This document shows positions 25,173-60,887 of a stretch of DNA of 64,000 bases, one piece after another; within the stretch, counting starts at the first letter, position 1, and every line of letters begins with the position of its first letter. The notes under the pieces are model-generated. The model was given only the letters and a program-made list of their open reading frames with translations. It was not told the origin of the DNA and searched no databases. Source of the stretch: Minisyncoccota bacterium (lineage in GTDB: Bacteria > Patescibacteriota > Minisyncoccia > 2-02-FULL-40-12 > GWA2-44-9); assembly GCA_035549275.1 (NCBI GenBank), contig DASZRH010000030.1, forward strand, positions 1,912-65,911, in the 5' to 3' direction. The translations under genes were made by a program, and so were the position numbers.

Positions 25173-25175
25173 AAA

Positions 25176-27439: not shown

Positions 27440-27446
27440 ATAAGAA

Positions 27447-30824: not shown

Positions 30825-30827
30825 AGA

Positions 30828-44677: not shown

Positions 44678-46678
44678 TTATTGTACCATGCGCAAAAATT
44701 CCTGTTCAGTAAGGATTTTGACATTTAGTTTTTGAGCTTTATCGTATTTGGAGCCCGGCTCGGCCCCGGCGACCACGTAGTCCGTTTCTGCCGAGACCGA
44801 CGAGGAGACATCTCCCCCGTTGTCTCGGATGAGAGCTTTGGCTTGGTCTCGGCTTAATGTTTCCAGAGTGCCGGTGAGGACGAATGTCTTGCCGGCGAGC
44901 TTGTGCGAGCCGGCTTTTTCCGCTTCTATCTGCAATCCGGATTTTTTGAATTTCTCAAGCAATTTTTTGTTGTATGATTTTTCGAACCAGCTTGAAATGC
45001 TGCTTGAAACTACGGGTCCGACGTCCTCGATCGCTTGGAGTTCAGCCGGGCTGGCCATCCGGAATTTTTCGAAGGTGCCAAAACGCTTGGCCAAGGTGAC
45101 TGCGGTTTCTTCACCGACGTGCGGGATGCCGAGGGCATAGATAAAACGCGATAGCGGCACGCTTTTCCGGGCGTGGATGGCGCGATACGCATTGGCAGCT
45201 GAAACCTCGGCAAACCGGTCCAGGTTCAGAAAATCTTCCGTAGTCAGACTGTACAAATCGGCGGAATCTTTGATAAGGGCCGCTTCCATGAGTTGATCGA
45301 TGAGCTTGGGCCCGATGCCGTCCATATCCAATGCCTTGCGAGAGACAAAGTGATAGACAGCTTCGCGGCGGATAGCGGGACAATCCTGATTCACGCACCT
45401 ATACGCTACTTGGCCTTCTATTTTTACGATCTTTTCGCCACAGACGGGGCATTTAATCGGCATTCGGAACTCGCGTTCTTTGCCGGTTCGCATGCCGGTA
45501 ACGACTTTCTTCACGTCGGGTATGACGTCCCCCGCTCGACCGATGATTACCGTATCCCCAATCTTGACGTCCAGGCGCCGGATTTCATCCAAGTTATGAA
45601 GGGTGGCCCGGGAAACGATTACCCCGCCCACCGCAGTCGGGCGCAGGAATGCAACCGGTGTGAGAGTACCGGTCCGGCCCACTTGGACGGAAATGTTTTC
45701 AACAACGGTTTCCGCTTCTTGCGGCGCAAACTTGTATGCGACCATGCCGCGGGGCGCTTTACCGATGACGCCGGCTTTTTCTAATTGGGAATTATCATTC
45801 ACGCTGACCACAATCCCGTCTATCTCGTACGGCAGTTTTTCTCGGATGTCTTCAATGTGTTTGTAAAACGCGTATACTCCATCGATATGCGTGCAGACTT
45901 TGCCTTCGGGATTGGTCGGAATGCCGAAGGTGTTCAATTTTTTGTATTCAGCTTCATGGGTGCGTTCGCCCGAGCCGGCGTAGGTATAAGCATAGAAAGA
46001 AAGATTCCGGCTTGCGGTGATTTTCGGATCTAATTGACGAACTGAACCGGCAACAAGATTGCGGGGGTTGGCATATATTTTTTCCCCGGCTTTCTCTTGT
46101 TCTTTGTTGATGCGGCGGAATTCTTTTTTGGTCAGGAATATTTCGCCGCGGGCGACAACTTCTGCCGGAATATCGCGGCCATGCAGTTTCAAGGGTATGC
46201 TTTCGACAGTTTTAATGTTTTGGGTGACATCTTCGCCCGTATCGCCGTCTCCCCGGGTGGATGCCTGGGCCAGAATGCCGCCTCGGTATACAAGCTCAAT
46301 GGCCAAGCCGTCCATCTTCAGGTCGCAGTAGAATTCCTGCGGCTTTGAGCCAAGCGTTTTTTCAAGGCGCTCGAGCCAATCCTGCATATCTTGTTCCGAA
46401 AACGCATCGTTGAGCGAATTCATGCGCAGCGGTTTGCCGTCCACCGTGTGGCGGACTTTGGCGAATTCTTTGGCCGGCTGGCCGGCGACGCGCTGGGTCG
46501 GAGAGTCCGGCGTGATCAAATCCGGATATTGCTGCTCAAGATCAAACAGTTCTTTTTTGAGGGAGTCGGCGGCTTCGTCCGACAGTTCCTGGCGATTTTC
46601 AACATGATACAAATAGCGATGACGATTGATCACCTCGCGAAGCTTCGCTATTCTTTTTTGCGCGTCTGCCTTGTTCAT
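44678..46678 (-). CDS. ligA: NAD-dependent DNA ligase
   Basis: Adenylation motif KMDGLA (Lys in CDLKMDGLAIEL); OB fold; zinc finger CPVCGEKIVKIEGQVAYRCVNQDC; HhH and C-terminal BRCT; 666 aa. Confidence 0.95.
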   Translation of the reverse strand: MNKADAQKRIAKLREVINRHRYLYHVENRQELSDEAADSLKKELFDLEQQYPDLITPDSPTQRVAGQPAKEFAKVRHTVDGKPLRMNSLNDAFSEQDMQDWLERLEKTLGSKPQEFYCDLKMDGLAIELVYRGGILAQASTRGDGDTGEDVTQNIKTVESIPLKLHGRDIPAEVVARGEIFLTKKEFRRINKEQEKAGEKIYANPRNLVAGSVRQLDPKITASRNLSFYAYTYAGSGERTHEAEYKKLNTFGIPTNPEGKVCTHIDGVYAFYKHIEDIREKLPYEIDGIVVSVNDNSQLEKAGVIGKAPRGMVAYKFAPQEAETVVENISVQVGRTGTLTPVAFLRPTAVGGVIVSRATLHNLDEIRRLDVKIGDTVIIGRAGDVIPDVKKVVTGMRTGKEREFRMPIKCPVCGEKIVKIEGQVAYRCVNQDCPAIRREAVYHFVSRKALDMDGIGPKLIDQLMEAALIKDSADLYSLTTEDFLNLDRFAEVSAANAYRAIHARKSVPLSRFIYALGIPHVGEETAVTLAKRFGTFEKFRMASPAELQAIEDVGPVVSSSISSWFEKSYNKKLLEKFKKSGLQIEAEKAGSHKLAGKTFVLTGTLETLSRDQAKALIRDNGGDVSSSVSAETDYVVAGAEPGSKYDKAQKLNVKILTEQEFLRMVQ

Positions 46679-46684
46679 AGCTGG

Positions 46685-47434
46685 CTAGTAGGCCTGAAGC
46701 TCATAAATGCCGATCTGGTGAGCCGTGCTTTGAGCTGAAACCCGTATTTGAGAGATTGATGCTGCTGGGAAGATCGTAATGGTGTCGCTTTCCGGACTGC
46801 CGCCCGAACCCAGTGTTGTCCACGTCGAACCGTTGTAGCCCTCAATCTGCCAGCTTGTAATATATACGTAAACGTCAGTGTGTCCATAGCCTTTTACAAC
46901 GGCATTAATTTGGCTAACTGTCTGAAGTGAACCAAGATCGACAGTATACGAAAAACTACTGAAACAGGGGTATGCCAGCGTATTCAGATCGCCGTCAGTC
47001 AGGTTGGAAGCCGGAAAATTACAGGGCTGGTGGTCTGCTATTGATTGGCTTACCGGTTTACCGAGGGCCAGATTTACCAAAGTCGCACCGCCGCTTTGGA
47101 CTTGGAGCGCGCGGCTGACGCCATGGTAGGTTCCGACCGCCTGGTGATTTAGCGGTACAATGGTGCAATCCGAAGGCGTAATTGTATAGGTGGCGCCGTT
47201 GGTGAGAGTTGGCGCGGGCCGAGCCGGGGTTTTGCCGCGGTTGGTATATAGGCACCATTCGATGCCGGTGTCGGCCGCGTAAATGGCGCTGACCGAACTG
47301 GACGCGTTGGTTGCGCTTTTAATCTTGGGCAAGAAGATAGCTGAAAGCGTTAAACTAATCAGCAGCATGCTGCCGAGAATCAAAAGCGTAAATAGCAGAA
47401 TCGACCCGGATTGTCGCTTAAAGTTCGCTTCCAA
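46685..47434 (-). CDS. pilus-associated protein with N-terminal hydrophobic anchor and discoidin (F5/8 type C)-like domain
   Basis: N-terminal hydrophobic segment overlapping the upstream prepilin gene. The C-terminal half has NLALGKPVSQS...NLTDGDLNT, matching the start of galactose-binding-like discoidin domains. It is the last gene of the pilus operon. Confidence 0.5.
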   Translation of the reverse strand: MEANFKRQSGSILLFTLLILGSMLLISLTLSAIFLPKIKSATNASSSVSAIYAADTGIEWCLYTNRGKTPARPAPTLTNGATYTITPSDCTIVPLNHQAVGTYHGVSRALQVQSGGATLVNLALGKPVSQSIADHQPCNFPASNLTDGDLNTLAYPCFSSFSYTVDLGSLQTVSQINAVVKGYGHTDVYVYITSWQIEGYNGSTWTTLGSGGSPESDTITIFPAASISQIRVSAQSTAHQIGIYELQAY

Positions 47435-47936
47435 TGTCGCGTGAGGAAACTGTGGTTTCCAGGTTAAAGGTTACTATATCTTTCCCGGTTCTGTTTTGTA
47501 TTGCGCCGATGATCGTAACGCGCGGCGTTGCTTTGTCGCTTGTCCCCGATCCCAATATGCAGAAATTCAAACGGGAAAATTGTACATCCGATGACGTGAG
47601 ATCGGTTACCACTCCGCCGGCCGTTCGCCGCAAAACGCCATTGGAAAGACTGTAGGTAACGGTGCCGTTGATAGGATGGCTGATTGTCAGCGATGTTGCC
47701 GAACAGTCGGTTGAATTCTGGTTGACGATGCTGCTGACGCGGATTTCCCGAGTCAGCAGCTCGAGAACATACAGCCCATTCTCTTGGATTTTTTGGGCGG
47801 AAAACGCTCGACGCTCGTTGTTCAATATTTGGGTAAACAGTCCGCTTGTCGCCAGAACAATGATTGAAAAAACAAATGTGGCTACCATGACTTCGACGAG
47901 TGTGAATCCTGATTGTGATGGGCTTGGTTTTTTCAT
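47418..47936 (-). CDS. minor type IV prepilin (GspJ/PilW-like)
   Basis: Class III signal: SQSGFTLVEVMVATFVFSIIVL (G-F-T-L-x-E). Confidence 0.7.
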   Translation of the reverse strand: MKKPSPSQSGFTLVEVMVATFVFSIIVLATSGLFTQILNNERRAFSAQKIQENGLYVLELLTREIRVSSIVNQNSTDCSATSLTISHPINGTVTYSLSNGVLRRTAGGVVTDLTSSDVQFSRLNFCILGSGTSDKATPRVTIIGAIQNRTGKDIVTFNLETTVSSRDIGSEL

Positions 47937-47937
47937 G

Positions 47938-48438
47938 TTATTTCCAATCGAACAAATGTTCTTCGGCTTGGACCGTCTTCACGTCGTTGCCGCGGGCAGT
48001 CCAGGAAACCTGGGATGTTATTTTCAATTCGCTGCTGCTGATGCCGAGAATCGTTATGGTGCGATAGAACTGGGTATCGGTGCCGATGGTATAGTTGTAG
48101 ACGCCGTTGTTGAGCTTCAGCGGCGGATTGGAACCGAGAGAAATGAGGGAAGTTGAATTCCATTCGACGCGGTAGGTGCCGTTGGCCAGGCCAGTGGCGA
48201 ACGCCTGACCGTTGAACCAGTTTGCGTCGCGGATTGTGCGGACCACTTCGATCCCCTCTTGGGCCAGGCCCGCTGCGATCATGTCATCGCGAATTGTCGT
48301 TGCCGCGCGCAACGAACTGTCGGACAGCTGTAGTACCGGAATTAGTGCCACGCTTAACACCACTAACGCGACAATTGCCTCGACAAGGGTAAACCCGCGT
48401 TCGCTATTGAATCTCGATTTTGCCGGAAGGATAGACAT
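47938..48438 (-). CDS. minor type IV prepilin (GspI/PilV-like)
   Basis: ERGFTLVEAIVALVVLSVAL prepilin cleavage/methylation motif. Confidence 0.7.
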   Translation of the reverse strand: MSILPAKSRFNSERGFTLVEAIVALVVLSVALIPVLQLSDSSLRAATTIRDDMIAAGLAQEGIEVVRTIRDANWFNGQAFATGLANGTYRVEWNSTSLISLGSNPPLKLNNGVYNYTIGTDTQFYRTITILGISSSELKITSQVSWTARGNDVKTVQAEEHLFDWK

Positions 48439-48982
48439 TGATGGTTTTACAGTCAGCGGGACAGGTGCCGCCGGACTTTTGGACGGTAATAGTTAACGGC
48501 GATTGGCTCAAAGAAAATACGTTATTTAAATACGTCTTGGGATCGGGCGGTTCAAAATATATATCGGAGAACGAGCCGGCAAACTGAATGCGCGAATCGG
48601 TGAATGTTTGCGATCCCAGCAAGGAGTCTTCGCTGGCGGAATAGTTCTTGTTGGTGCTTGCACAGGTGGCGGTTGCGGCATTCGGTCCTGCGTAGATCGA
48701 GAAGTGGCTTGCGTCGATATAGTGGAAACCGTACCCGCAGGGATTGTAATTGTTGTATTTGACGCTGGCAATGGCGTTGGATTGGGCATTTCGAATTGCG
48801 GCGGCGACGAGATTGGCGCCGGTTGTCAGATCAACGCGGCTTCGGGAAAAATTGCTCAAAAGAGCCGTGCTTATGATCGAGACGATGGCGATCACAACTA
48901 CCATCTCAATGAGAGTAAACCCGCGGTTATCGGAATAATTCAGCGACATAGAATATGTATTGATAGAATAGGATACAGGCAA
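48404..48982 (-). CDS. minor type IV prepilin (GspH/FimT-like)
   Basis: NRGFTLIEMVVVIAIVSIIS prepilin motif. Confidence 0.7.
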   Translation of the reverse strand: MPVSYSINTYSMSLNYSDNRGFTLIEMVVVIAIVSIISTALLSNFSRSRVDLTTGANLVAAAIRNAQSNAIASVKYNNYNPCGYGFHYIDASHFSIYAGPNAATATCASTNKNYSASEDSLLGSQTFTDSRIQFAGSFSDIYFEPPDPKTYLNNVFSLSQSPLTITVQKSGGTCPADCKTINVYPSGKIEIQ

Positions 48983-49715
48983 TTCCCGCGCTGGCGAGAA
49001 ATGTTCCCAATGGCAGCGAGGTTTTCATAGATGCCTTGCGGACAGCCAAGAGCGCCAAGGCCCAGGCGGCTCCGATCCAAATGCCAGCAATGATAACGAG
49101 CACGCCAAGCGGATAGCCGAACATAAGCCCAATCAAAAAGCCCAACTTAGCATCCCCTAACCCGATCCATTTGCCTTGGGACACCAAGTGCAGTATAGCA
49201 AAAAAAGCCCCGATCAGTAATCCAGTCAGGAAGAATTCGGCTGGCGCTGAAGTATACAGCACGTGATATGCAGAGACAATAAGAACTAGGGGCAGAATAA
49301 TGGCATCCGGCAAGATCATATATAAAAGGTCAAAGACGGCAAGTGCAAGCAAGGCAAAAGCGACGAGAATTTGGAGCGTCAAAAACACGGGAGTTCCTGG
49401 GATGTGAAAGAAGGCGATCCCAACTGCAAGAAATCCGGCAGCAAGCTCGACGCCCAGATAGCGAGGACTGATGGACCGGCGGCAATAGCGGCATCGGCCA
49501 GATAGAAATATATAACTGGCAACCGGCAATAAATCAAGCCAGCCGAGTGGGTGATGGCAATGCGGACATTCCGATCGGCCGTTCAAAGAGCGGCCGATCG
49601 GAAGCCGCCACAAAAGTGCATTCAGAAAGCTGCCGTAGATCGTTCCCCCAATGAAGGCAATAACGCCGATAGTCAGCATAGATACATTATACGAAAGAAA
49701 CAAACTCCCCGCCAC
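48927..49715 (-). CDS. pilD: prepilin peptidase (A24 family)
   Basis: N-terminal tetra-Cys zinc region CPHCHH...CRYCRR; polytopic membrane; conserved Asp-containing regions (LAVFDLLY; IGLGDAKL). Confidence 0.85.
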   Translation of the reverse strand: MAGSLFLSYNVSMLTIGVIAFIGGTIYGSFLNALLWRLPIGRSLNGRSECPHCHHPLGWLDLLPVASYIFLSGRCRYCRRSISPRYLGVELAAGFLAVGIAFFHIPGTPVFLTLQILVAFALLALAVFDLLYMILPDAIILPLVLIVSAYHVLYTSAPAEFFLTGLLIGAFFAILHLVSQGKWIGLGDAKLGFLIGLMFGYPLGVLVIIAGIWIGAAWALALLAVRKASMKTSLPLGTFLASAGIACILFYQYIFYVAELFR

Positions 49716-49747
49716 GCAAAGCGTGGCGGGGAATTAAAGATGCAATG

Positions 49748-50263
49748 CTATTTCTGGCCTTGATCGTAGACGCAATCGCGAGCAGCACCGGCGGTATACG
49801 CAGCTGTACAGACTTCAGATCCGGTACCAGTTGTTGCGCTGGCATTTAAAGCATCCCCAGACCATCCTGTCGAGTTGATATCAGCATCAGCTCCTAAGGC
49901 AGAAGCGTTCTTTTGCTCAAGTTCAGTCCAGATATGGAACTGGGTTGGGTTGGTGCTACCGTTATAAGCATAGAAGTAGCCTGCAGCAGTAACCGGGTCG
50001 ACTGGCAATGCACTTGAAGTTACGTACTTTCCAAGGTTTGTAATGTTGAGTGCAGTCGGATAGTGGCCGCCGTTATCGTCAAAGTAGAGTTCAGCCATCG
50101 TGCGGAGCTGGTTGACGTCCGCAATACGCTTAGCATCGCGAGCTTTGGCGCGGGCAACGCCGAGCTGGAGCAAGAGCAAGGTGGCCAAGACGCCGATGAT
50201 GGCGATAACGACCAACAACTCGACTAGCGTGAATCCTCGAGACAATCGTTTATACGTTAACAC
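49748..50263 (-). CDS. pilA: major type IV pilin
   Basis: [26 protein letters not shown]-terminal alpha-1 helix with G-F-T-L-x-E. 171 aa, and the highest-expression context in the cluster (own intergenic promoter region 50264-50395). Confidence 0.8.
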
Positions 50264-50395
50264 TGTAGGAAAGCCCTGGTAAAATGTTCTCCGATTGCGT
50301 AGCGAAGAAATTCCAGCCCAGAAGCATCTTAGTTACTTTACCTCCATTATAATTCCCCTGCTTGGAAGCACAAGCGACAGATATCAACAGGCATG

Positions 50396-51607
50396 CTATG
50401 AACCACCGACCAAACTGTAAATCGGAAGCAAAATACTGGAAACGAGAATAGCCACGGCAAAACCGAGAATAAGCACGATGACTGGCTCCAGGAGCTGGGT
50501 AATAGTGTTGATCGTGTTTTCAGATTCTGATTTGTAGAATTTGGCGACGTGTTCAAGCATGTAGTCGAGTTTGCCGGTGCGTTCGCCAATAGAGACCATT
50601 GAGGCAAATAGCGGTGGAATTTCAATTGCGTGCTGAATGAGAATTTCAGAGATTTTGCCGCCGCCGCGAACCTGATCTTGGGCAGCCAGCATAATATTCC
50701 GGTAATTCGTATTGCCGACCAGGTCCGCCGTAATTTGAAGCGAATCTAAAATTGGAATGCCGGATTTGACGAGCGTGGAAAGACTTTCGCCAATACGGGC
50801 CAGGAATAGGTTGCGAACAACAATGCCGATTGCCGGCGCCTTGATCATAATGTCATCGAGCCAAACCTTCCCCTCGGCGCTTCGTATAAATCGGACAATA
50901 ATAAATCCCCCAATGACGACAACGCCTAAAATGTAATACAAATAAGCGTTTACAAAGTTAGTCACCGCGATCAGGATCCGCGTCGTAACCGGGAGATCGG
51001 TGATTCCCGAGTCTTTAAAGACGGAAAGCAATTGGGGCAAGACGTATACGCCCATGATGCCGGCGACAATGATGAGCGCACCCACCACAAATGCCGGATA
51101 CGTTAAGGCGCCGCGAATCTTGGAGTTGATGCCTTGGCTGCGTTCCAAATAATCAGCCAGGTACAGCAACGATCCCTGGAGTTTCCCTGATACCTCCCCT
51201 GCTTGTGTCAGCTTGATATAGAAGGAGGAGAAGAATTTCGGATAAACGGCCAAGGCGCCGGAGAGCGAGGTGCCTGCTTCTACGCGTGATGCGACATCGA
51301 GAATGACTTTTTTGAACGGCGGTTTTTCGATCTGGGCGGCGAGCGTACGCAAGCCCTCGGCGATCGGCATATCGGCTTCGACGAGCGTAGCCAGCTGGCG
51401 CGTGAATACAACGATATCTTTGTTGTTGACGTGGGCGAAGAGATGATTGACGTCAACGTTCAGAAGGTCTTTTTTGACGGGATTAAGCGAGAATACAACG
51501 AAACCCTTGTTGTGAAGAATTGAAACGGCTGTGTTTTCATCGGGCGCATTGATGACGCCCTCGCTGATCTGGCCGGCCGGATTTTTGACCTGGTAATTAA
51601 ACTCCAT
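50396..51607 (-). CDS. pilC: type IV pilus inner-membrane platform protein PilC (GspF family)
   Basis: Two T2SS_F repeats; 403 aa; three TM segments. Confidence 0.85.
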   Translation of the reverse strand: MEFNYQVKNPAGQISEGVINAPDENTAVSILHNKGFVVFSLNPVKKDLLNVDVNHLFAHVNNKDIVVFTRQLATLVEADMPIAEGLRTLAAQIEKPPFKKVILDVASRVEAGTSLSGALAVYPKFFSSFYIKLTQAGEVSGKLQGSLLYLADYLERSQGINSKIRGALTYPAFVVGALIIVAGIMGVYVLPQLLSVFKDSGITDLPVTTRILIAVTNFVNAYLYYILGVVVIGGFIIVRFIRSAEGKVWLDDIMIKAPAIGIVVRNLFLARIGESLSTLVKSGIPILDSLQITADLVGNTNYRNIMLAAQDQVRGGGKISEILIQHAIEIPPLFASMVSIGERTGKLDYMLEHVAKFYKSESENTINTITQLLEPVIVLILGFAVAILVSSILLPIYSLVGGS

Positions 51608-52667
51608 GATAATTTCTCAAATTCTTGGGGTTAATTGAATAGAACTCCGCTTGTTCCATGGTAATTTCTTTTTGATTTACCAATCCAGCCAATGATTTGT
51701 CCAGCGAGATCATGCCCACATCCTGACTGGTTTCAATGACTAGATCAAGCTGTTGGGGACGGTTGTCGCGGATAAGCGTGCGGACCGCTGTCGTAGCCAC
51801 AAGCACCTCTACTGCCGGGATTAGTCCGCCTTGGATGCGCGGAATAAGGCGCTGGGACACGATACCCGAAAGCGTACTGGCTAGTTGAGTTCTAATTTGA
51901 GACTGCTGGCCCGGCGGGAAGCTGTCAATGATGCGTTCAATCGTTTGGGAAGCGCTGTTGGTGTGCAGAGAGGCAAAAACAAGGTGGCCCGTTTCGGCTG
52001 CGCTTACGGCTGCGCTCATCGTTTCCTGATCGCGCATTTCGCCGATCATAATAACGTTTACGTTCTCCCGGAATGTGGAACGCAGGGCGCGATCAAAAGA
52101 TAGACTGTCCTGGGGCACTTCGCGCTGATCGATGATGCTTTTGTCGGGCGTAAACAAGTATTCGATCGGGTCTTCAATGGTGACGATTTTGTCTCCCCGT
52201 TCGTGGTTGATCTCATCAATCAGACTGGCCATGGTTGTAGATTTGCCGTGGCCGTTGGGGCCGACAACAAGAACGAATCCTTGGGAAAGTTTGGTGAACA
52301 CCCGGAGGACAGGCGGCAAATTCAAGTCTTCAATCTTTTTGATTTCTTTTGGAATCAAGCGTAACGCTGCGGCCGGACCGCCGTTCGTCTGATACACGTT
52401 AACGCGGAACCGGATATCGCCAGGCGCGGAAACGGAAAAGTCGGCTTCTTTTTCGGTTGCAAAGCGCGCCGCCCGCTCCTCCCCCAAAAGGGCGTTGATC
52501 ACACTGCCAAGGATATCTTGGCTTAAGATTTCCCGGTTTGTCAGCGGCACAAGCCGGCCGTCAATGCGGAGCGTGGGATAATACGCCGGCGACAAGTGAA
52601 GATCTGATGCGTTGCTGCGCGCGGTTTCGACCAGAAGTTCTTCGAGATATTTTTTGGGGTTGTCCAT
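51597..52667 (-). CDS. pilT: twitching-motility retraction ATPase PilT
   Basis: Walker A GPNGHGKSTT; TIEDPIEY; Walker B IMIGEMRD; about 356 aa, the typical PilT size, lacking the N-terminal GSPII_E domain. Confidence 0.85.
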   Translation of the reverse strand: MDNPKKYLEELLVETARSNASDLHLSPAYYPTLRIDGRLVPLTNREILSQDILGSVINALLGEERAARFATEKEADFSVSAPGDIRFRVNVYQTNGGPAAALRLIPKEIKKIEDLNLPPVLRVFTKLSQGFVLVVGPNGHGKSTTMASLIDEINHERGDKIVTIEDPIEYLFTPDKSIIDQREVPQDSLSFDRALRSTFRENVNVIMIGEMRDQETMSAAVSAAETGHLVFASLHTNSASQTIERIIDSFPPGQQSQIRTQLASTLSGIVSQRLIPRIQGGLIPAVEVLVATTAVRTLIRDNRPQQLDLVIETSQDVGMISLDKSLAGLVNQKEITMEQAEFYSINPKNLRNYHGV

Positions 52668-52675
52668 AGATGTGG

Positions 52676-54436
52676 TTATGCTGAATCTCCGGCTTGAGCG
52701 ACCTCAAGCAACTCCTCTAATGATACAATGCCTTTCAATACTTTTAAAATGCCGTCCTGGAACATGGTGATCATGCCCTGGCGTTTGGCTTCCTGCCGCA
52801 TGGCTGCTTCGGAGATTGTCCCGAGAATGATTTTTTCAAATTCGGGCGTCATTTCAAGCATTTCGAAGATGCCGATGCGGCCCTTGAATGCTTTGCCGCC
52901 GCAATGGCGGCAGACGTTTTCCTTCTGGCCGACATTCGGCTCGCAGATGGTGTACCCGTCTTTAGCAAGATATTGCTTTTGATATTCTTCTGGCATCGCT
53001 TTAAGGGCTTCTTCGATGATGCTTGATTGGGCTTGGTTTGCTTTTTGCTGAAGCTTGCACTCGGGACACAGACGGCGCAAGAGACGCTGGGCGGCAGCCA
53101 CATTCAAGGTGGATGGGATGAGATATTTTTCAACACCCATGTCAACGAGGCGCGGTACGACGCCGATGGCGTCATTGGTATGAAGCGTCGAAAGTACGAT
53201 ATGGCCGGTCAAGGCCGCTTGAGTGGCCAAACCCGCCGTTTCACTGTCGCGAATTTCGCCGACCATGATAATGTCGGGGTCTTGGCGAAGGATGTGGCGC
53301 AAACCGGAAGCGAAAGTATAGCCGATTTCTTCGTGAACTTGGGACTGGTTAACCCCGTCAACGAAATATTCGATCGGATCTTCCAGAGTTACAATATTAA
53401 CGTCATCGGTATTTATGCGTTTGAGCATGCCGGCCAAGGTGGTGGATTTACCCGACCCTGTCGGACCGGTGATCAGAATCGAGCCGAATGGTTTGGCGAT
53501 GGCCCGCTCGAGGACGTCCATGGAACGCCCTTCTAATCCCAGGTCCGTCAGGGTCGTGCTGCCCGAGAGCGGGTCCAAAATACGCATAACCACCTTCTCG
53601 CCGCCTTTGGTTGGGAATGTCGAGACGCGGAAGTCGACTTTTCGGTCGTTGATTCGCGTGGCAAAGCGGCCGTCTTGAGCCAGTCGGGTTTCATCGATTT
53701 TCAAATCGGATAAGATTTTGATGCGGGTGGAAACCGCCGATTGTAGATTCTTGGGAAGCGTAAGGGCGATACTCAAAACGCCGTCGATGCGGAAACGAAC
53801 GCGGACGCGGTCTTCAAAGGGTTCGATATGAATATCGGATGCGCGCGAATCAACGGCGTGCCGGATGATGACTGCCACAATGCGCGTAATCGGAGCTTCG
53901 GCGGTAATTTCTTCAAGCGTTTGAATGTTTTGAGTGCTCTTTTTTTGGAATTCTTCATTAAGAGATTCCAGGGCCTGACTTACCTCCCCCGAAAGGGTTC
54001 GGTAGTTGCGGGTGATGGAATTGAAATCCTTGTAGCTGATAACATACTTCTCGAGCGATAAGCCCTTGTTGGCGGCGATAAACTTCAATGCTTCCAGCGC
54101 TTCGACGTTCTCGGGATTGATGATGCCGACTTTTAGGACGTTATCCTCTTTTGCAAACGGCACTACTTTGTAGAAAGAAACCACGTTGTCCGCGATTTCT
54201 TTGAGCACCTCCCGATTTAACTCGATCTCTTCGAGTTTGATGATCGGAAGATGATAGAGATTTGATTTGAATTCGGCGAGGCCCTCGTCGGTCAGAATGC
54301 CCTGATCAATAAGAACTTGGCCGACGTCTTTGTCGTCTTTTTGGGCCGCAGCGATAAAAGAGTCGGCTTGGGATTGGGAGATTACATTTGTCCGGACAAG
54401 TTCGTCCAGGAGCGTTGTAGGCAAGAATTGTGGCAT
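52676..54436 (-). CDS. pilB: type IV pilus extension ATPase PilB (GspE family)
   Basis: Two N-terminal GSPII_E domains; Walker A GPTGSGKSTT; LEDPIEY; Walker B IMVGEIRD; tetra-Cys CPECK...CRHCGGK; 586 aa. Confidence 0.85.
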   Translation of the reverse strand: MPQFLPTTLLDELVRTNVISQSQADSFIAAAQKDDKDVGQVLIDQGILTDEGLAEFKSNLYHLPIIKLEEIELNREVLKEIADNVVSFYKVVPFAKEDNVLKVGIINPENVEALEALKFIAANKGLSLEKYVISYKDFNSITRNYRTLSGEVSQALESLNEEFQKKSTQNIQTLEEITAEAPITRIVAVIIRHAVDSRASDIHIEPFEDRVRVRFRIDGVLSIALTLPKNLQSAVSTRIKILSDLKIDETRLAQDGRFATRINDRKVDFRVSTFPTKGGEKVVMRILDPLSGSTTLTDLGLEGRSMDVLERAIAKPFGSILITGPTGSGKSTTLAGMLKRINTDDVNIVTLEDPIEYFVDGVNQSQVHEEIGYTFASGLRHILRQDPDIIMVGEIRDSETAGLATQAALTGHIVLSTLHTNDAIGVVPRLVDMGVEKYLIPSTLNVAAAQRLLRRLCPECKLQQKANQAQSSIIEEALKAMPEEYQKQYLAKDGYTICEPNVGQKENVCRHCGGKAFKGRIGIFEMLEMTPEFEKIILGTISEAAMRQEAKRQGMITMFQDGILKVLKGIVSLEELLEVAQAGDSA

Positions 54437-54451
54437 AGGAAACGGGCCATA

Positions 54452-54733
54452 TTAGAACGGAGCAAAAATATCGCGCTTGCCCGTGGCTTCGGGAATAACT
54501 GGAACTTCGCCAAATACTTTCAAGTTCGTGTATATTGTTGCGTCAAGAACTGAAAAATCAATTTGAACATTCTGGAAATCTTTCAATGTATCAGTTTCCT
54601 CAATTGGCGAAGCGGCAACTGGAGTTTCATTGGGCCCCACATATTGGCTGTAATAAATATACCCAAGTACAATACCAAAGATCATAACAAGTAAGACGTA
54701 AAGGCGATTGGTCGATGATACGGGAGATGGCAT
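54452..54733 (-). CDS. hypothetical small membrane protein (possible PilP-like pilus assembly component)
   Basis: 93 aa with a single TM, between pilO and pilB. Confidence 0.35.
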   Translation of the reverse strand: MPSPVSSTNRLYVLLVMIFGIVLGYIYYSQYVGPNETPVAASPIEETDTLKDFQNVQIDFSVLDATIYTNLKVFGEVPVIPEATGKRDIFAPF

Positions 54734-54734
54734 G

Positions 54735-55259
54735 TTATTGAGTCAAAAAATATGTGTTTGCTTTTAGGCGGAATTGAATATCCGAGCTTTCGGCACCGAC
54801 GGGAGCCGCATTTATCGAAGTGATGTCAATAATTCTGATATTTTGCTCGATGGCAGAAAGAAATGAGCGGAATGCTGGGTATGTGCCAGTTATGGTCAGA
54901 TCGATTCCTTGTGTCTGATAAGATGCGGCTTGGTTGTTGGGGTCGATATTGCCAAGCGCGATACCGTTAAGAGTCAATCCGCTCTGGTGGACGATTGCTT
55001 CAAGCATTGAGACAAGCTCTGGTGAACTTTTAGTTTCCGGGACGATATATGAAAAGCGAGAAATATCGCTTGAGTGTTGGGAATATTGTTGAGCCCAACT
55101 ATTGATCTGATCAATCAAAGAGGTGCGTTGTGTTAATTCCGCGTCGCGGGCGGCCACAGCTTCCCTTGCTGATGAAATATGGTCATAGCTAGGCATGACA
55201 AAAGCCCAAAAGATGAATGCGGCGGCAACGACAATCAATGCTCCAAGATAGGCCTTCAT
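54735..55259 (-). CDS. pilO: pilus assembly protein PilO-like
   Basis: 174 aa; N-terminal TM followed by coiled-coil; position after pilN. Confidence 0.55.
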   Translation of the reverse strand: MKAYLGALIVVAAAFIFWAFVMPSYDHISSAREAVAARDAELTQRTSLIDQINSWAQQYSQHSSDISRFSYIVPETKSSPELVSMLEAIVHQSGLTLNGIALGNIDPNNQAASYQTQGIDLTITGTYPAFRSFLSAIEQNIRIIDITSINAAPVGAESSDIQFRLKANTYFLTQ

Positions 55260-55260
55260 A

Positions 55261-55824
55261 TTATTTTAATTCCATTTTTAAGAATTTTTCAGGTTTGAAT
55301 TTGACATGTGCGGTTACATCAAGTTTGCCTGTGGTCTGAATACTGACGTTATCGAGGGTGATATCCTGCACAGCATCATCAGCAACGAATGCGGCAAGCT
55401 GGCGGGCAAGCGTCGAATAAGAATCCGTAACAGCTTCAAACCGGAATGTGCTATCTTCAGTTTGGCCCGAAAAGTTTACGAACTGTACTTTATTTTGAAG
55501 CGCCGCTTCAATCTTGGAAAGACCTTGTGACCAATACGTATGGTTTTTAACAATTTGAGTGGCGGTTTTCATCTGCTGTGATAGTGTCAGGAGCGCTCCT
55601 TCCGTTTGGAGGTTGCGCTCGTTCTCTAAATTAACAAGTGCGGTGTTGGCGGCATCAAGCTGTTGGTCAAGGCGATTGCCGTACCACCATACTCCCCCGT
55701 ACACGGCCAAAACGATCGCCAGTACTGCGATTCCGAAATAAATAATCTTGTTCTCCCCCGGAGTCGTAACAACAATGCTTTTGCGGGTCTCCGGAAGGAG
55801 CTGGATACCTCCTTTATCAGCCAT
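55261..55824 (-). CDS. pilN: pilus assembly protein PilN-like
   Basis: 187 aa; short cytoplasmic N-terminus, single TM, periplasmic coiled-coil; follows pilM. Confidence 0.55.
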   Translation of the reverse strand: MADKGGIQLLPETRKSIVVTTPGENKIIYFGIAVLAIVLAVYGGVWWYGNRLDQQLDAANTALVNLENERNLQTEGALLTLSQQMKTATQIVKNHTYWSQGLSKIEAALQNKVQFVNFSGQTEDSTFRFEAVTDSYSTLARQLAAFVADDAVQDITLDNVSIQTTGKLDVTAHVKFKPEKFLKMELK

Positions 55825-55878
55825 ACTATATAGTATACAACGTGTTGGACGTTGCGGTTAGGACTTTATCAACAATTT

Positions 55879-56922
55879 CTAAATATCGCGCATCGCCAGG
55901 CCGGTAGCAACCGAAAACGTACTGGCCAGCTCGCTAATCACCGGTCCGAGCGCTTGGGGATAGACAATGCGGCTAAACGGATTGCCGATTACAACATCTT
56001 GGCCGAGCTTTTGTTTGAAATATTCCAGAAAGTTCGGCATGTTGGCCATGCCGCCGACCAGTATGATTCGGGAAATTTTCTGGCTTTTTGAGGTTTCGTA
56101 GGCGGTAATGGTTTTGCGGGTCTCAAACGCCATCATGTCGATGAGCGACGACATGGCTTCATTAATGACGTTTTCGTCAATCTGCCTCATTCCGAGGGTT
56201 TTTTTCAGTTCTTCGGCTTTCTCGATGCTGATGTTCAGGGATCGGGCGATGGATTTGGTGATCTCAAAGCCCCCCACTTCGTAGTTGTGGGAAAGCCGTT
56301 CATATCCTTTGTTGATGATAATGATTGAAGTGCTGCGGCCGCCGATGTTAATTACTGCAGTCGGCGAAAGATCGTTGCCGATCACGGCGCGCGCGAGGGC
56401 CGAGTTTTCTAATTCTAATGCTTTGAGCGTGAGGCCGGCCTTGGCCATGATCGTCTGGTAGCGGACGGTTTCGTCTTTGGGGACCGCGGCGACGAATACT
56501 TCGACCGTCGGTTTGGGACCTTGGCCGGTGATGCCGATAATTGACCAATCAAGAACTACTTCGTCCAGGGGAATCGGTACATACCGGCGAGCTTCAAACG
56601 GGAGAGCTTTGGCCAGTTCTGCCTCCGAGAGGTACGGCATTTCGATGACAGTGGCGAATGTCGAGAAAGATGGGATTGAGGCTACGACGCTGTGGCTGCC
56701 AATCTTTGATTTCTTGAGCAGTTCTTTGATGCCCCAGGCGATTTCATCGTCCGGCAACTTCAGAATGCTTTGGTCAGTGCTTCCACCCGAAATATTTTTG
56801 ATTTCAAAGAGGCCGTAGTTTTTCAAGTGAAAGCGGTTGCTTTTCTTGGTAAGCTCGATAATTTTGATGGCGGCGGTGCCGATGTCGATGCCGATTGTGC
56901 TGCTGGGACCGAATAGAGCCAT
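55879..56922 (-). CDS. pilM: pilus assembly protein PilM (actin-like ATPase fold)
   Basis: IGIDIGTAAIKIIEL phosphate-1 motif and GGMANMP adenosine motif of the actin/FtsA superfamily. Start set at MALFGPSST (56922); the track ORF extends to 57102. Confidence 0.75.
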   Translation of the reverse strand: MALFGPSSTIGIDIGTAAIKIIELTKKSNRFHLKNYGLFEIKNISGGSTDQSILKLPDDEIAWGIKELLKKSKIGSHSVVASIPSFSTFATVIEMPYLSEAELAKALPFEARRYVPIPLDEVVLDWSIIGITGQGPKPTVEVFVAAVPKDETVRYQTIMAKAGLTLKALELENSALARAVIGNDLSPTAVINIGGRSTSIIIINKGYERLSHNYEVGGFEITKSIARSLNISIEKAEELKKTLGMRQIDENVINEAMSSLIDMMAFETRKTITAYETSKSQKISRIILVGGMANMPNFLEYFKQKLGQDVVIGNPFSRIVYPQALGPVISELASTFSVATGLAMRDI

Positions 56923-57011
56923 TGATGGATGCTTCCGTAGCGTCACGGAGCCGATTTGTATACAATAAAGTATATCACAGAACAGAAATCCGTGCGCTGA
57001 ATTATCCCCAC

Positions 57012-57719
57012 ATGCTGATTCGCCGAATTGCCGACCTGATATTCCCCTATCGCTGCTTGGGCTGTGGCGTGTTTCTAGAGCGCGGGTATATTTGCTCTGC
57101 ATGCTTCCAGAACGTGTCGCTCCGGTTTCGGCTTGAATGCATTGGCTGCCGCCAGAGTTCGCCCGGTGGATTTACGTGTTCAAGTTGCAAAGCGGAGTGT
57201 GCCATCAGCAGGTTTTTCGTCGTCAGTGACTATCGGCATCCGGTTGTGCATGCCGCAATCCATGGGCTTAAATATAAATTCCTGCCGGAGTTGGCCGTTC
57301 CGCTCGGAGATTGGGCGGTAACATATATTCGGAACCAATCGGCGCTTCATCGGGTTTCCTTCGCCGGCGAGCGGTTTCTTCTCACGGGCGTTCCCTTGCA
57401 TTCTCGGCGCGAGAACTGGCGCGGATTCAATCAGTCGGAGCTTGTTGCCCAACGAATTGCCGCACAGCTACAGATGGATTTTTGTCCCTTGCTTGAGCGA
57501 TCTGTCCATGCGTCGCCGCAGGCGCGGGTGCCGGATCGGGCCGAACGATTCAAAAATGTCCGCGGCCAGTTCAGGTGCGCCGCCGCGTCCGGCGCCGGCC
57601 GCAATGTTCTTATTGTTGACGATGTCTGTACGACGGGCGCGACGCTGAACGAATGCGCGGCTGTCCTGAAGGCCGCCGGCGCCGCTTCCGTCTCCGCACT
57701 TGTCATTGCCAGGGGCTAG
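57012..57719 (+). CDS. comF: ComF-family protein (double zinc ribbon + phosphoribosyltransferase domain)
   Basis: CLGCG...CSAC / CIGC...CSSC zinc ribbons; C-terminal PRTase motif LIVDDVCTTGATL; divergent from pilM. Confidence 0.8.
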   Translation: MLIRRIADLIFPYRCLGCGVFLERGYICSACFQNVSLRFRLECIGCRQSSPGGFTCSSCKAECAISRFFVVSDYRHPVVHAAIHGLKYKFLPELAVPLGDWAVTYIRNQSALHRVSFAGERFLLTGVPLHSRRENWRGFNQSELVAQRIAAQLQMDFCPLLERSVHASPQARVPDRAERFKNVRGQFRCAAASGAGRNVLIVDDVCTTGATLNECAAVLKAAGAASVSALVIARG

Positions 57720-57745: not shown

Positions 57746-57834
57746 GGAGACGTGTCAGAGTGGTCTAATGTACCTCTTTGCTAAAGAGGTGTTCGGGTAA
57801 AACCGGACCGGAGGTTCGAATCCTCCCGTCTCCG
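57746..57834 (+). tRNA. tRNA-Ser (anticodon GCU), class II
   Basis: Acceptor ggagacg/cgtctcc; anticodon stem cctct/agagg with loop ttgctaa; long variable arm; T-loop ggaggttcgaatcctcc. Confidence 0.85.
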
Positions 57835-57853
57835 CATTCAGGCCACGCTCTCC

Positions 57854-57943
57854 GGAGAGGTGGCTGAGTGGTTGAAAGCAGCGGTTTACTAAACCGCCGG
57901 GCTCGCAAGAGCCTCGTGGGTTCGAATCCCACCCTCTCCGCCA
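57854..57943 (+). tRNA. class II Ser-like tRNA with ACU anticodon loop (ttACTaa), CCA encoded; unusual
   Basis: Acceptor ggagagg/cctctcc; anticodon stem gcggt/accgc with loop ttactaa; long variable arm cgggctcgcaagagcctc; T-loop gtgggttcgaatcccac. Confidence 0.6.
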
Positions 57944-58164: not shown

Positions 58165-58478
58165 TCTCTTTTGCTGGTTCCTACAAACGCGACTGGTGTA
58201 ACTTCGTGGCCACGGCAGCATTGGCTGATTATTAGGTGGTTCAACTAATCGTGTATAAAACATATAGCCGAAAGTACGCGATTATACGCGCAAATCAAAA
58301 AACCTTGCTGGCAAAGGCCGGAATGTCGAATAAATCTGGTCTTTCTTGGTAAATACGTCTCAATTTTCGTATAATCCTATCAACATTTCCATAGCTAAAG
58401 CGTCCTATCGGTTCAAAGTTGCGCCAACCATCACCGCTCGCATTGACTTTTTATGGCACAAGTGGCAATATATGGGCC

Positions 58479-60887
58479 ATGAAATTATACCCTCGGATTG
58501 CCCTCTTTATTCTTGCCATCGCCGGATTTTCGGTCTTTGTTGCTCCCGCCGCTCACGCCCAGATCAAGTATCAGGGCTTTTATTTTGTCGAAGACGATAT
58601 GTACAACATCCACTATATGGATGAATTGGCGGGATACAACAATGTTTTAAAAATAAGCATTGATAATACCAAAAACCCGCAAGCCATTGCCACCAAAGCT
58701 CGCCAAGATGGCTACACATATGTCGAAATTACGCTGGGCTTTAACGAAGCGCTCTTTACGAATGCCGACGGTGCTCGCGATGCGTATCTTCAAAACGTGA
58801 AAAAGAAGCTATACCAGGATTCCGATCTTGGTAATATGCTGCTCGATATTCATATTCTGGAAGAAGAATTTACATTGCTTCACCAGCACTATTTCGATGA
58901 TTGGGCGTTTGTGAAGAATCTGGATGTGGCCGCCTGTCAGGCGAAATATCACGACCCGACGCTTAACGCCCGCAATTGCGAAGATTATGCGATGAAAGAA
59001 GGTCTTGAAAGCTATATCAGCGACGTGAAAAAATATTTTCCCGGTATTCCGACGATAATCGTCGAGAACACCTGGGGATACAATTTTGAACCGCCGAGCA
59101 ATCTCGATATTCTGGGAATCGATGCGTACTATATCCCCTCCACGGCCGACTGCGGCGAAAATCAGCAGACGCTCTTTCGGGTGTATGTTACAGACGTGGT
59201 TAATTACGCCAAACGCTACGGCAAGCCGATATATATGGTTGGGGCCGTGTTTAACTCCGGGCCGTACAAGATGCCATCCCAATGCCAGGCCCAATGGTAT
59301 ATCGATTATGCCAAGAATACTCCCGAGGTTATCGGCCTGAACTGGTTTTTGTACGCGACAGTGGACGGAGTGAATGGCGTTCGAAATGATCCCTTGGTTA
59401 CCTTCCTGAAGCAAGAAGGACGCAAACTGTTTAATTCAACCCCGGTTATTACCAGTACGGCCATAAACGCGAGCCAGATTATTCCAAACGCCCAAAACAC
59501 ATACCAAATTAGCGTTACTGCCTCTGACAAAGATGGCGCTGATGACATCAAGGCCCAATATGCCCTCGTGAACCAGCTCTACCAAGGCGTGAACGGAGGC
59601 CAGTACCGCGGCTATGTCGGCTGGAGCAAAGACGGAGATTCAGTGCAAAAGTATTATTTCCCCGGAATCAGTGGCGCTGTAATCCCCTGCCTTGGCGGCG
59701 GGACCGCCGCCAAGGCAGTTGGGTATGGTGAGGAGTATATGAATTTATTGAGTTGTTCGACCAGTGTTTCCAGCACGACTCGCACAACGGTATTTACTGT
59801 CAGCTTCAATTTGAACTTCACCGCGCCTACTGCAAACAATACGGTCTCGGGCTGGGCGACGGATGAAGCGCTTGCGCGGAGCGGGTGGCAGACATTCGGT
59901 TCGTTTGGGTTAAAATCAAATTCGGCGCCGATCATCACAAATACTGCGATAAATACATCGACTATCGCGCCGAACATGAATACTCCCTATCAAATTAGCA
60001 TTTCCGCTTCCGACAAAGATGGTGTGAATGATATCAAAGTCGAATATGCGCTCATCAATCAGCTGTATCAGGGACCTAACGGCGGCCAATATCGAGGGTA
60101 TCTGGGCTGGAGCCAAAACAATGATGCCGTTGAGAAATATTATTTCCCTGGCGTCAGCGGATCAGTGATGCCGTGTGCCGGTGGTGGCTATGCAGCCAAG
60201 GCAGTCGCGTACGGAGCTGAATACATGAATTTAATTTCTTGTTCTACATCTACTAGCGGTACAACTCGTACTACCGTATTTACCGTAACGTTTAATACTA
60301 ACTTCACCGCGCCCACCGCAAACAATACGGTCTCGGGCTGGGCGACGGATGAAGCGCTTGCCCGGAGCGGGTGGCAGACATTTCAGACCTTCGGATTAGT
60401 GAGGAATACCTCGCCAATGGTTGTGAATGCCGCCATCAATGCCTCTCGTATTGTTCCGAACGGGCAGAACACATATCAAATCACGGTTGCCTCATCCGAT
60501 ACCGACGGTCCTAACGACATCAAGGCCCAATATGCCCTCGTGAACCAGCTCTACCAAGGCGTGAACGGAGGCCAGTACCGCGGCTATGTCGGCTGGAGCA
60601 AAGACGGAGATATGGTCCAGAACTACTATTTTCCCGGAATACAAGGAGCAACTTTTCCCTGCACAGGCGGCGGCGTGGCTGCCAAGGCGATCGGCTATGG
60701 CCAGGAGTATTTGAACGTGCTTGGTTGTTCCACATCGGTCTCAGGCAATACTCGAACGACTGTGTTTACGGTGAGTTTCAATCCTAATTTCACTGCTCCT
60801 GCTACTGGCAATACTATTTCCGGCTGGGCAACTGATGCATATTTGGCACGTAGCGGCTGGCAAACGTTCGGTACATTTGGGTTGTAG
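58479..60887 (+). CDS. secreted multi-domain surface protein: N-terminal putative glycoside-hydrolase-like domain plus three ~160-aa tandem repeats
   Basis: Signal peptide MKLYPRIALFILAIAGFSVFVAPAAHA; about 300-aa N-terminal domain; then three homologous repeats, each containing QYALVNQLYQG.NGGQYRGY.GWS and a C..GGG.AAKA.GYG.EY.N..SCSTS segment. Confidence 0.7.
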   Translation: MKLYPRIALFILAIAGFSVFVAPAAHAQIKYQGFYFVEDDMYNIHYMDELAGYNNVLKISIDNTKNPQAIATKARQDGYTYVEITLGFNEALFTNADGARDAYLQNVKKKLYQDSDLGNMLLDIHILEEEFTLLHQHYFDDWAFVKNLDVAACQAKYHDPTLNARNCEDYAMKEGLESYISDVKKYFPGIPTIIVENTWGYNFEPPSNLDILGIDAYYIPSTADCGENQQTLFRVYVTDVVNYAKRYGKPIYMVGAVFNSGPYKMPSQCQAQWYIDYAKNTPEVIGLNWFLYATVDGVNGVRNDPLVTFLKQEGRKLFNSTPVITSTAINASQIIPNAQNTYQISVTASDKDGADDIKAQYALVNQLYQGVNGGQYRGYVGWSKDGDSVQKYYFPGISGAVIPCLGGGTAAKAVGYGEEYMNLLSCSTSVSSTTRTTVFTVSFNLNFTAPTANNTVSGWATDEALARSGWQTFGSFGLKSNSAPIITNTAINTSTIAPNMNTPYQISISASDKDGVNDIKVEYALINQLYQGPNGGQYRGYLGWSQNNDAVEKYYFPGVSGSVMPCAGGGYAAKAVAYGAEYMNLISCSTSTSGTTRTTVFTVTFNTNFTAPTANNTVSGWATDEALARSGWQTFQTFGLVRNTSPMVVNAAINASRIVPNGQNTYQITVASSDTDGPNDIKAQYALVNQLYQGVNGGQYRGYVGWSKDGDMVQNYYFPGIQGATFPCTGGGVAAKAIGYGQEYLNVLGCSTSVSGNTRTTVFTVSFNPNFTAPATGNTISGWATDAYLARSGWQTFGTFGL
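59433..60884 (+). repeat. three in-frame tandem direct repeats (~486, 486, 480 bp) within the surface-protein gene
   Basis: Units start near 59433, 59919 and 60405. Long identical stretches recur at the corresponding position of different units: for example caatatgccctcgtgaaccagctctaccaaggcgtgaacggaggccagtaccgcggctatgtcggctggagcaaagacggaga occurs from about 59560 and again from about 60530. Confidence 0.75.

Follow-up and report, generated by a model that had tools for sequence, protein, structure and literature searches.

What does a type IV pilus operon do beside a comF-like gene in a member of the Patescibacteria, and what does the discoidin-like protein encoded at its end add to it? The question is raised by positions 46685-57719 of a 64,000-nt stretch of DNA from a Minisyncoccota bacterium (GCA_035549275.1, contig DASZRH010000030.1), the whole of which is referred to as the window. 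A preliminary description had read this segment as a natural-competence or DNA-uptake module, in which a 249-aa protein with a discoidin-like domain might be a pilus-tip adhesin. The analysis reported here makes it likely that the locus is a conserved chromosomal operon for type IVa-like pili in a tiny and probably host-dependent Patescibacterium of the Parcubacteria/Yanofskybacteria type, with a K-type minor pilin onto which a lectin has been grafted as the likely glycan-binding tip.

Two modules in the last gene of the pilus operon

Every gene of the operon is on the minus strand, in the order pilM, a pilN-like gene, pilO, a gene for a 93-aa protein, pilB, pilT, pilC, pilA, pilD, three minor prepilin genes and the gene for the 249-aa protein. 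When GTDB species representatives were scanned with the pilin module of the 249-aa protein, 23 loci were returned, most of them under the label Candidatus Yanofskybacteria (Patescibacteria, Parcubacteria group). The closest relative is locus L001/L006 (CAZKJF010000007.1, GCA_964553025.1), which has the same operon at 84% DNA identity; ratios of nonsynonymous to synonymous substitution rates (dN/dS, Nei-Gojobori) were calculated against it. The coding sequence of the 249-aa protein divides as follows:

47096..47434, minus strand: pilin module, residues 1-113, PilX/GspK-class ("K"), with Gly-1 at residue 10, no Glu5, and Cys61 and Cys90 (dN/dS 0.030)
46685..47095, minus strand: discoidin/CBM32 module, residues 114-249 plus the stop codon, assigned by F5_F8_type_C and Foldseek (dN/dS 0.035)

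A word-index homologue search gave three relatives, and it was an exhaustive search that revealed the two-module build. Among 1.84 billion representatives searched with the 249-aa protein there were 734 matches, falling into two disjoint classes: stand-alone proteins of ~110-130 aa that align to residues ~4-113 only, and discoidin-containing proteins, often large and multi-repeat, that align to residues ~114-249 only. Members of the first family have Gly-1 in at least 90% of cases, conserve Cys61 and Cys90, and have no Glu at position +5; nine of 60 match Pfam PilX_N (PF14341), at best with an E value of 8.3e-6. An AlphaFold model made with a 50-sequence alignment reached a predicted local distance difference test score (pLDDT) of 90.7, as against 51 for a single-sequence run. 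It has a predicted pilin-type fold in the N-terminal module, with a 57-residue helix (9-65) and strands at 82-86, 96-103 and 106-113 (pLDDT mostly >90), then a linker at ~113-125 and a beta-sandwich at 125-249.

The second module matches F5_F8_type_C (PF00754) over residues 139-242 with 29.3 bits, the gathering score being 28.2. When the model was compared with the PDB by Foldseek, the top matches were all CBM32 modules or related lectin domains (probability 1.00, E 7.5e-9 to 1e-7), with a root-mean-square deviation of 2.4-3.1 Å and TM scores of 0.75-0.80 on the target. CBM32 families were also found weakly by sequence (NanJ CBM32, E 0.032). Structure prediction and Foldseek thus bear out the discoidin fold suspected in the preliminary description. 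The separate sets of homologues for the two halves and the short linker between them are those of a modular pilin; the IPR012902 motif that defines the class (Raynaud et al. 2021) is absent. No silent CBM32 cassette and no second copy of the pilin module was found in the window.

Three further prepilin genes lie immediately upstream:

48404..48982, minus strand: minor prepilin 1, H-like (N_methyl E 3.2e-9; probable start ATG 48949)
47938..48438, minus strand: minor prepilin 2, I-like (N_methyl E 5.8e-7)
47418..47936, minus strand: minor prepilin 3, J-like (N_methyl E 3.6e-8)

These have canonical G↓FTL(V/I)E motifs, where the 249-aa protein has G↓SILLF. Their best NCBIfam matches are all below threshold: GspH (E 4.5e-7, 30 bits vs 80) and ComGD for the first; GspI (E 1.6e-6, 28.6 bits vs 44) and PilV (E 2.4e-6) for the second; and ComGF (E 7e-8) and GspJ (E 3e-3, 17 bits vs 65) for the third. 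There are thus four adjacent minor-pilin genes, the last encoding a protein without Glu5, in an order kept in ~22 loci. The H, I, J and K pilins of type IV filaments share an operon, and the K pilin, which lacks Glu5, caps a quasi-helical tip complex (PMC9934059). Since the curated thresholds of the H/I/J/K families are not reached, the 249-aa protein is better described as K-class by architecture than as a PilX or GspK orthologue. A tip location is likely from this arrangement, and the proposal of a tip adhesin is credible, the N-terminal half being a Glu5-less PilX/GspK-class pilin encoded last after the H/I/J-like prepilins. Glycan binding and host attachment by the CBM32 module are suggested by the modelled fold.

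Several points weigh against this reading. The H, I and J assignments, being sub-threshold, draw largely on the N-terminal helix; the 249-aa protein of the window reaches no PilX_N score of its own; and its Pfam discoidin score is just ~1 bit over threshold. Processing by PilD and incorporation into the pilus are presumed, and the CBM32 module may have its ligand in the wall of the cell itself or in an abiotic polysaccharide. The protein might even be no pilus subunit at all, but a membrane-anchored surface lectin with an N-terminal signal anchor, standing at the end of the operon by chance. It would fit such a protein that there is no GFxxxE prepilin motif and no N_methyl match either, and that the profile of the pilin module found nothing significant among PDB sequences, solved pilins included. 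A surface lectin is nevertheless improbable: lectin-free orthologues of ~120 aa keep the fourth place, behind three prepilins, in ~22 loci, Gly-1 is nearly constant in the family and PilX_N is matched by some of its members, the long alpha-1 helix and small sheet of the model are typical of pilins, and the absence of Glu5 is itself a hallmark of the capping K subunit (PMC9934059).

The comparison with relatives also separates the K-type pilin from its lectin. The orthologous open reading frame (ORF) ends right past the pilin module (...GTY.GVSRSLEV), at ~120 aa, in 21 of the other 22 GTDB loci, and the only CBM32 extension among those 22 is in the sister genome L006. The CBM32 module is therefore an addition to a conserved carrier. 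Other members of the pilin-module family have different C-terminal modules, including another discoidin, a Cys-rich and a DUF11-like module. The same CBM32 subfamily (38-57% identity) also occurs on a second, longer pilin carrier, whose homology to the short one is indicated by HHalign (probability 97.4%). In locus L030 a CBM32 pilin with the longer carrier closes the series of minor pilins ahead of ligA, the same operon encoding pilB, pilT, pilC, pilins and pilD, and L002 has a truncated CBM32-pilin example, again with ligA next. A PilX-like N-terminus combined with this type of discoidin occurs in about ten clusters among the best 150 of the 734 matches. The architecture is rare but recurrent. 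A close relative of the CBM32 module (54-57% identity) was seen in P0003, a 223-aa protein from a JGI contig, fused to PG_binding_1 (E 6e-17); the fusion is a weak hint that this discoidin subfamily may target cell-wall material. It is possible, if doubtful, that the K-type minor pilin of Parcubacteria pili is a conserved "socket" for interchangeable ligand-binding heads, an idea prompted by the module being bare in almost all Yanofskybacteria, by the other heads in scattered lineages, and by the presence of CBM32 on two carriers and on a peptidoglycan-binding protein.

Machinery, conservation and control of the operon

Upstream of the minor prepilins are the genes for the pilus machinery and the major pilin:

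55879..56922, minus strand: pilM, actin-like cytoplasmic pilus assembly protein, 347 aa (PF11104 E 8.8e-46; TIGR01175 185.4 bits, cutoff 133; dN/dS 0.020)
55261..55824, minus strand: pilN-like gene, bitopic membrane protein of 187 aa with one transmembrane segment, assigned by its position between pilM and pilO (dN/dS 0.026)
54735..55259, minus strand: pilO, 174 aa (PF04350 E 2.5e-13; GspM-like E 3.9e-11)
54452..54733, minus strand: 93-aa membrane protein between pilO and pilB, with an N-terminal transmembrane helix (dN/dS 0.098)
52676..54436, minus strand: pilB, extension ATPase, 586 aa (T2SSE E 4.5e-122 plus an MshEN domain)
51597..52667, minus strand: pilT, retraction ATPase, 356 aa (TIGR01420 404.5 bits, cutoff 319.1)
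50396..51607, minus strand: pilC, platform protein, 403 aa (two T2SSF domains, PF00482, E 1.9e-54)
49748..50263, minus strand: pilA, major pilin precursor, 171 aa (N_methyl E 1.4e-8; dN/dS 0.011)
48927..49715, minus strand: pilD, prepilin peptidase and N-methyltransferase (A24_N_bact E 3e-26; Peptidase_A24 E 6.9e-9)

The complete, co-oriented operon of the preliminary description is thus present, with matches at family level for PilM, PilO, PilB, PilT, PilC, the pilins, PilD and F5_F8_type_C. The two ORFs that gave no Pfam or NCBIfam match are the 187-aa one that had been called PilN and the 93-aa one. The alignment subcomplex accordingly consists of PilM and PilO identified by profile, and of a putative PilN assigned by position, topology, an IQLLP motif and conservation: the gene is kept in sequence and position in ~19 related loci, and its product begins with GGIQLLPE, which matches the PilM-binding INLLP-type motif of PilN. 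Both ATPases, for extension and retraction, are also confirmed. PilB has TIGR02538 (PilB) as its top NCBIfam match (E 1.9e-160), with 535 bits where the equivalog cutoff is 676, and the closest solved relatives of PilT in the PDB are all PilT (E 2.6e-83). A second PilB/GspE-type ATPase (12036-13697, plus strand, 553 aa), 38% identical to the PilB of the operon, stands alone between nusA and ruvB and suggests that a second type IV filament system is encoded elsewhere, as in Saccharibacteria.

Some gene starts were corrected. That of pilM is at 56922 rather than the ORF start at 57102, that of comF is at 57012, that of pilA is GTG 50263, backed by the leader peptides of relatives, and the true start of pilD is probably ATG 49679. 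PilA has a class III signal peptide (G-1, F+1, E+5) with cleavage before FTLVE, leaving a mature protein of 161 aa with a C-terminal pair of Cys residues.

The 93-aa protein is found between pilO and pilB in 18 related loci, with an invariant C-terminal motif, FGE.PV.PG..GK.D.FAP, and searches of Pfam, NCBIfam and the PDB gave no match; the protein is a candidate for an undescribed part of this lineage's pilus machinery. The "...GK.D.FAP" end had raised the suspicion of a PilP-like adaptor, which was dropped for want of support in the same three databases.

No sizeable ORF of the window matched a secretin (PilQ) or PilP, in agreement with the reported absence of PilQ from the candidate phyla radiation (CPR; PMC6744442). 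The lack of both points to a pilus built for an envelope without an outer membrane, a monoderm-style variant. A type II secretion-like pseudopilus, exporting proteins rather than forming a surface pilus, would share several of the features seen here: the top NCBIfam match of PilC is GspF, PilB scores nearly as well as GspE, the minor pilins resemble GspH, GspI and GspJ, and related Saccharibacteria systems have been annotated as type II secretion systems (PMC10633639). It is very improbable all the same, given a PilT over its curated cutoff, PilM and PilO of the type IV pilus kind, no GspC, GspD or GspL, and a major pilin whose mature length and C-terminal Cys pair are unlike the short GspG; pili have also been visualised in CPR cells (PMC9894109, PMC11623550).

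The pilus operon has been kept under strong purifying selection, with dN/dS between 0.011 and 0.108 across all 15 genes compared; values this low indicate real genes rather than chance ORFs. In tblastn comparisons the full gene order was kept in ~22 loci, from comF and the divergent pilM-N-O-orf93-B-T-C-A-D through the three prepilins and the PilX-like gene to ligA and gatC. The locus belongs to the vertically inherited core rather than to an island. The ligA gene (NAD-dependent DNA ligase, 44678-46678, minus strand) starts 6 nt past the stop codon of the tip pilin and is followed by gatC-gatA. The pilX-ligA junction is kept in Yanofskybacteria and in two more distant lineages (loci L002, L030, L007-L027), and this together with the 6-nt gap suggests that ligA is probably co-transcribed with the pilus operon. 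The L006 record is titled "uncultured Candidatus Saccharibacteria bacterium", yet in pilus operon and ligA its nearest counterparts are genomes bearing the label Yanofskybacteria or Paceibacterota, with full synteny and 47-78% protein identity; the Saccharibacteria label of L006/L001 is probably wrong or generic.

Four non-coding features of the pilus locus were mapped:

56923..57011, between divergent genes: pilM-comF intergenic region, 89 bp, the presumed promoters of both (95.5% identical to L006)
50264..50395, minus strand: pilC-pilA spacer, 132 bp, with the pilA promoter and leader (TATAAT at 50351-50346; -35-like TTGTGC at 50373-50368)
50389-50380, minus strand: element TGTTGATATC (consensus TGTKGAYAWC), 6 nt upstream of the -35-like box
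49703..49735, minus strand: strong hairpin and T-run directly 3' of pilA, terminator- or attenuator-like, with a G+C-rich stem of 15 bp including 10 G-C pairs

Window and L006 share 97% identity over the pilC-pilA spacer, compared with 79-88% for coding DNA. The TGTKGAYAWC element occurs once in the 64 kb, and lies <250 nt upstream of pilA in 20 of the 23 related loci and also just upstream of pilN in five; TGTTGATATC is probably the site of an undescribed pilin regulator, which may be a dedicated one. The stem of the hairpin is kept in L006 with a different loop. A promoter of its own and a hairpin behind it would be typical of an operon that encodes its machinery together with a strongly expressed major pilin, with high expression of pilin and lower expression of the machinery. 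The pilA leader matched no Rfam family and has no unusually stable fold (folding z-score 0.63). A 25-codon upstream ORF in this leader was set aside, as it is not conserved in more distant loci.

Adhesion and DNA uptake

If the operon works as its parts suggest, PilD would cleave and methylate the prepilins, and the minor pilins, in H-I-J-K gene order, would prime assembly on the PilC platform, held by PilM, PilN and PilO and probably also by the 93-aa protein. PilB would then polymerise PilA under the minor pilins, and PilT would retract the filament. Because Glu5 is missing, the K subunit could be accommodated only at the very top, where its C-terminal discoidin/CBM32 domain, on a short linker, would form a carbohydrate-binding head. 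The most likely role would be recognition of glycans on the wall of a host or partner cell, and retraction-driven attachment to them.

The competence reading of the preliminary description takes in the gene at the other end of the locus:

57012..57719, plus strand: ComF-like gene (ComFC/GntX-type), 235 aa, with a double zinc ribbon and a phosphoribosyltransferase domain (dN/dS 0.069)

This gene is divergent from pilM, as had been described, and the pairing is found in all related loci whose flank reaches that far (L006, L007, L015, L027). Its product matches Pfam Pribosyltran (37 bits, above 26.3) and falls short for DZR_2 (22.6 bits, below 27). The NCBIfam matches to GntX (E 4.3e-30, 104.9 bits vs 304) and TIGR00201 (E 9.6e-22, 77.8 bits vs 233.6) are both under their curated cutoffs, and there was no phmmer match to solved ComFC. 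ComEC, ComEA and DprA domains were searched for in the sizeable ORFs of the 64-kb window and none was found. Of the proposed DNA-uptake module, the ComF-like gene is therefore in place, below its family cutoffs, and the other components looked for are not in the window.

Published work on related organisms points both ways. ComEC is reported from 86% of the genomes of the CPR, in which a joint action of type IV pili and Com proteins has been proposed (PMC6744442). ComEC-dependent natural transformation has been shown in Saccharibacteria (PMC10633639). Southlakia epibionticum, however, cannot grow epibiotically without its type IV pili, whereas comEC, comF and dprA do not count among its fitness genes and ComEC is required for transformation alone (PMC10633639); thin-pilus mutants of Nanosynbacter have wild-type competence but bind their hosts poorly (PMC11623550).

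A locus that is primarily a competence pilus, whose retractile filament captures DNA for ComEC, ComF and DprA and so serves transformation or nucleotide scavenging, would account for the conserved comF-pilM adjacency and for PilT, and it would draw on the CPR-wide frequency of ComEC and the demonstrated transformation of Saccharibacteria. Even ligA, 6 nt past the operon, could be counted in its favour; against this, ligA is an essential housekeeping gene with gatC-gatA after it. The machinery moreover is of the PilMNO/PilT type, with ComGA and ComGB scores far under their cutoffs, and the predicted fold of the tip is of a carbohydrate-binding type rather than any known DNA-binding pilin module. 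Together with the missing Com domains, the sub-threshold ComF and the mutants of Southlakia and Nanosynbacter, this makes a primary role in competence rather unlikely. Adhesion or motility is ranked above DNA uptake because of the absence of ComEC, ComEA and DprA from the 64 kb and because of the Saccharibacteria mutant data. The two are not mutually exclusive, and DNA uptake is a possible additional function of an adhesive pilus; the conserved ComF-like neighbour hints that the pilus may also feed it.

Neighbouring genes, related systems and implications

Beyond the ComF-like gene are two adjoining serine tRNA genes, tRNA-Ser(GCU) at 57746-57835 and, at 57854-57943 on the plus strand, a tRNA-Ser with anticodon ACU (ARAGORN; loop TTACTAA). 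An A34 serine tRNA beside its GCU isoacceptor is unusual, and of the Ser codons in nearby genes AGT is used least (18 of 235). They are followed at 58419-60887 (plus strand) by a gene for a predicted secreted protein of 822 aa, with three internal repeats of ~160 aa and no Pfam match, which is a candidate surface or host-interaction protein.

On the other side of the operon, 24093-33280 (minus strand) is a cluster of large ORFs with almost no family matches. It includes a VirB4/TraG-type ATPase that appears to be split, with an N-terminal part at 27447-28178 and a P-loop part at 25682-27439, followed by proteins of 806, 514 and 303 aa. The cluster resembles a type IV secretion system of Patescibacteria that has been described as akin to the conjugation machinery of monoderms (PMC12102498). 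Further left, the minimum of the cumulative GC skew falls at about 20 kb, next to dnaA (20654-22024) and dnaN (19350-20438), the likely origin of replication. To the right of ~20 kb the plus-strand skew is positive, yet the minus strand carries nearly all genes between 24 and 57 kb, those of the pilus operon among them; these would be head-on to replication if the skew indicates which strand is leading.

The closest described parallels to the modular K pilin are in Saccharibacteria. In the pili of Nanosynbacter lyticus TM7x and in T4P1 of Southlakia epibionticum, PilX is the largest minor pilin; its signal peptide is non-canonical, its C-terminal part is a lectin-like accessory domain, and it has been proposed as a tip adhesin for glycans of the host cell wall (PMC11623550; PMC10633639). 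TM7x has two such systems (T4P-1 and T4P-2), with lectin-like PilX1 and PilX2, both with non-canonical signal peptides, of which PilX2 is needed for efficient host binding (PMC11623550). The present locus belongs to a different phylum-level lineage (Parcubacteria/Yanofskybacteria-type), and its pilin, known from sequence and models, has a small discoidin/CBM32 sandwich on a minimal carrier of 113 residues in place of an L-type-lectin-like domain or beta-propeller.

The modular pilins of Streptococcus sanguinis (PilB with vWA, PilC with a lectin) are also similar: the pilus is of monoderm type, a short linker connects a small pilin module with one that binds a ligand, and the tip complex includes a Glu5-less subunit; the S. 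sanguinis lectin module binds glycans (PMC8179133, PMC9934059). There, however, the modular pilins keep Glu5 and the Glu5-less PilA has no extra module, whereas here it is the Glu5-less K that carries the lectin, and the lectin fold is concanavalin-A-like there and discoidin/CBM32 here. In a survey of >1,200 modular pilins (Dataset S1), a pilin with an F5/8-type-C domain is listed once and F5/8-type-C with PilY1 twice; the survey was keyed on the canonical N-methylation motif, which is missing in the 249-aa protein.

Compared with the HIJK tip complexes (GspH/I/J/K; FimU-PilV/W/X with PilY1), there are likewise four consecutive minor-pilin genes, the last encoding a Glu5-less protein; in those systems K caps the filament and can bear an extra domain (the GspK alpha-domain), and the adhesin is at the tip. 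The differences are that there is no PilY1 here, the adhesive module being fused to K, that there is no secretin, and that the family-model matches are all sub-threshold. The beta-sandwich fold is that of CBM32/F5/8 type C modules such as the Paenibacillus chitosan-binding DD1 and DD2 and those of Clostridium perfringens GH89 and NanJ, but sequence identity with the solved CBM32 modules is just 15-24%, and the module is on a pilin rather than a glycoside hydrolase. Competence pili (ComG of Firmicutes, ComZ of Thermus) share with this locus a type IV filament beside a ComF-type gene, ComZ being a precedent for a large tip-associated pilin as receptor. They differ from a system with PilMNO and PilT, ComGA and ComGB matches under cutoff, and a lectin fold rather than a DNA receptor at its tip.

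With lectin-like PilX pilins in Patescibacteria and modular pilins already published, a lineage-specific CBM32 tip is a small new variation. The locus tempers the assumption that a pilus beside comF is a competence module, and leaves the picture of CPR pili unchanged. Patescibacteria make up a large share of bacterial diversity and are mostly uncultivated, and little is known of how they recognise their partners outside a few oral Saccharibacteria. Here there is a clean comparative case from the Parcubacteria, in which the machine is conserved and the tip subunit alone differs, by a 136-residue lectin module that is small and expressible and thus a concrete reagent for glycan arrays or host-cell pull-downs. 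Should the K-type pilin prove to be a socket for interchangeable heads, the gain of CBM32 in this clade would mark a recent change of host or substrate specificity, and the identity of the tip module could predict the partners of uncultivated Patescibacteria.

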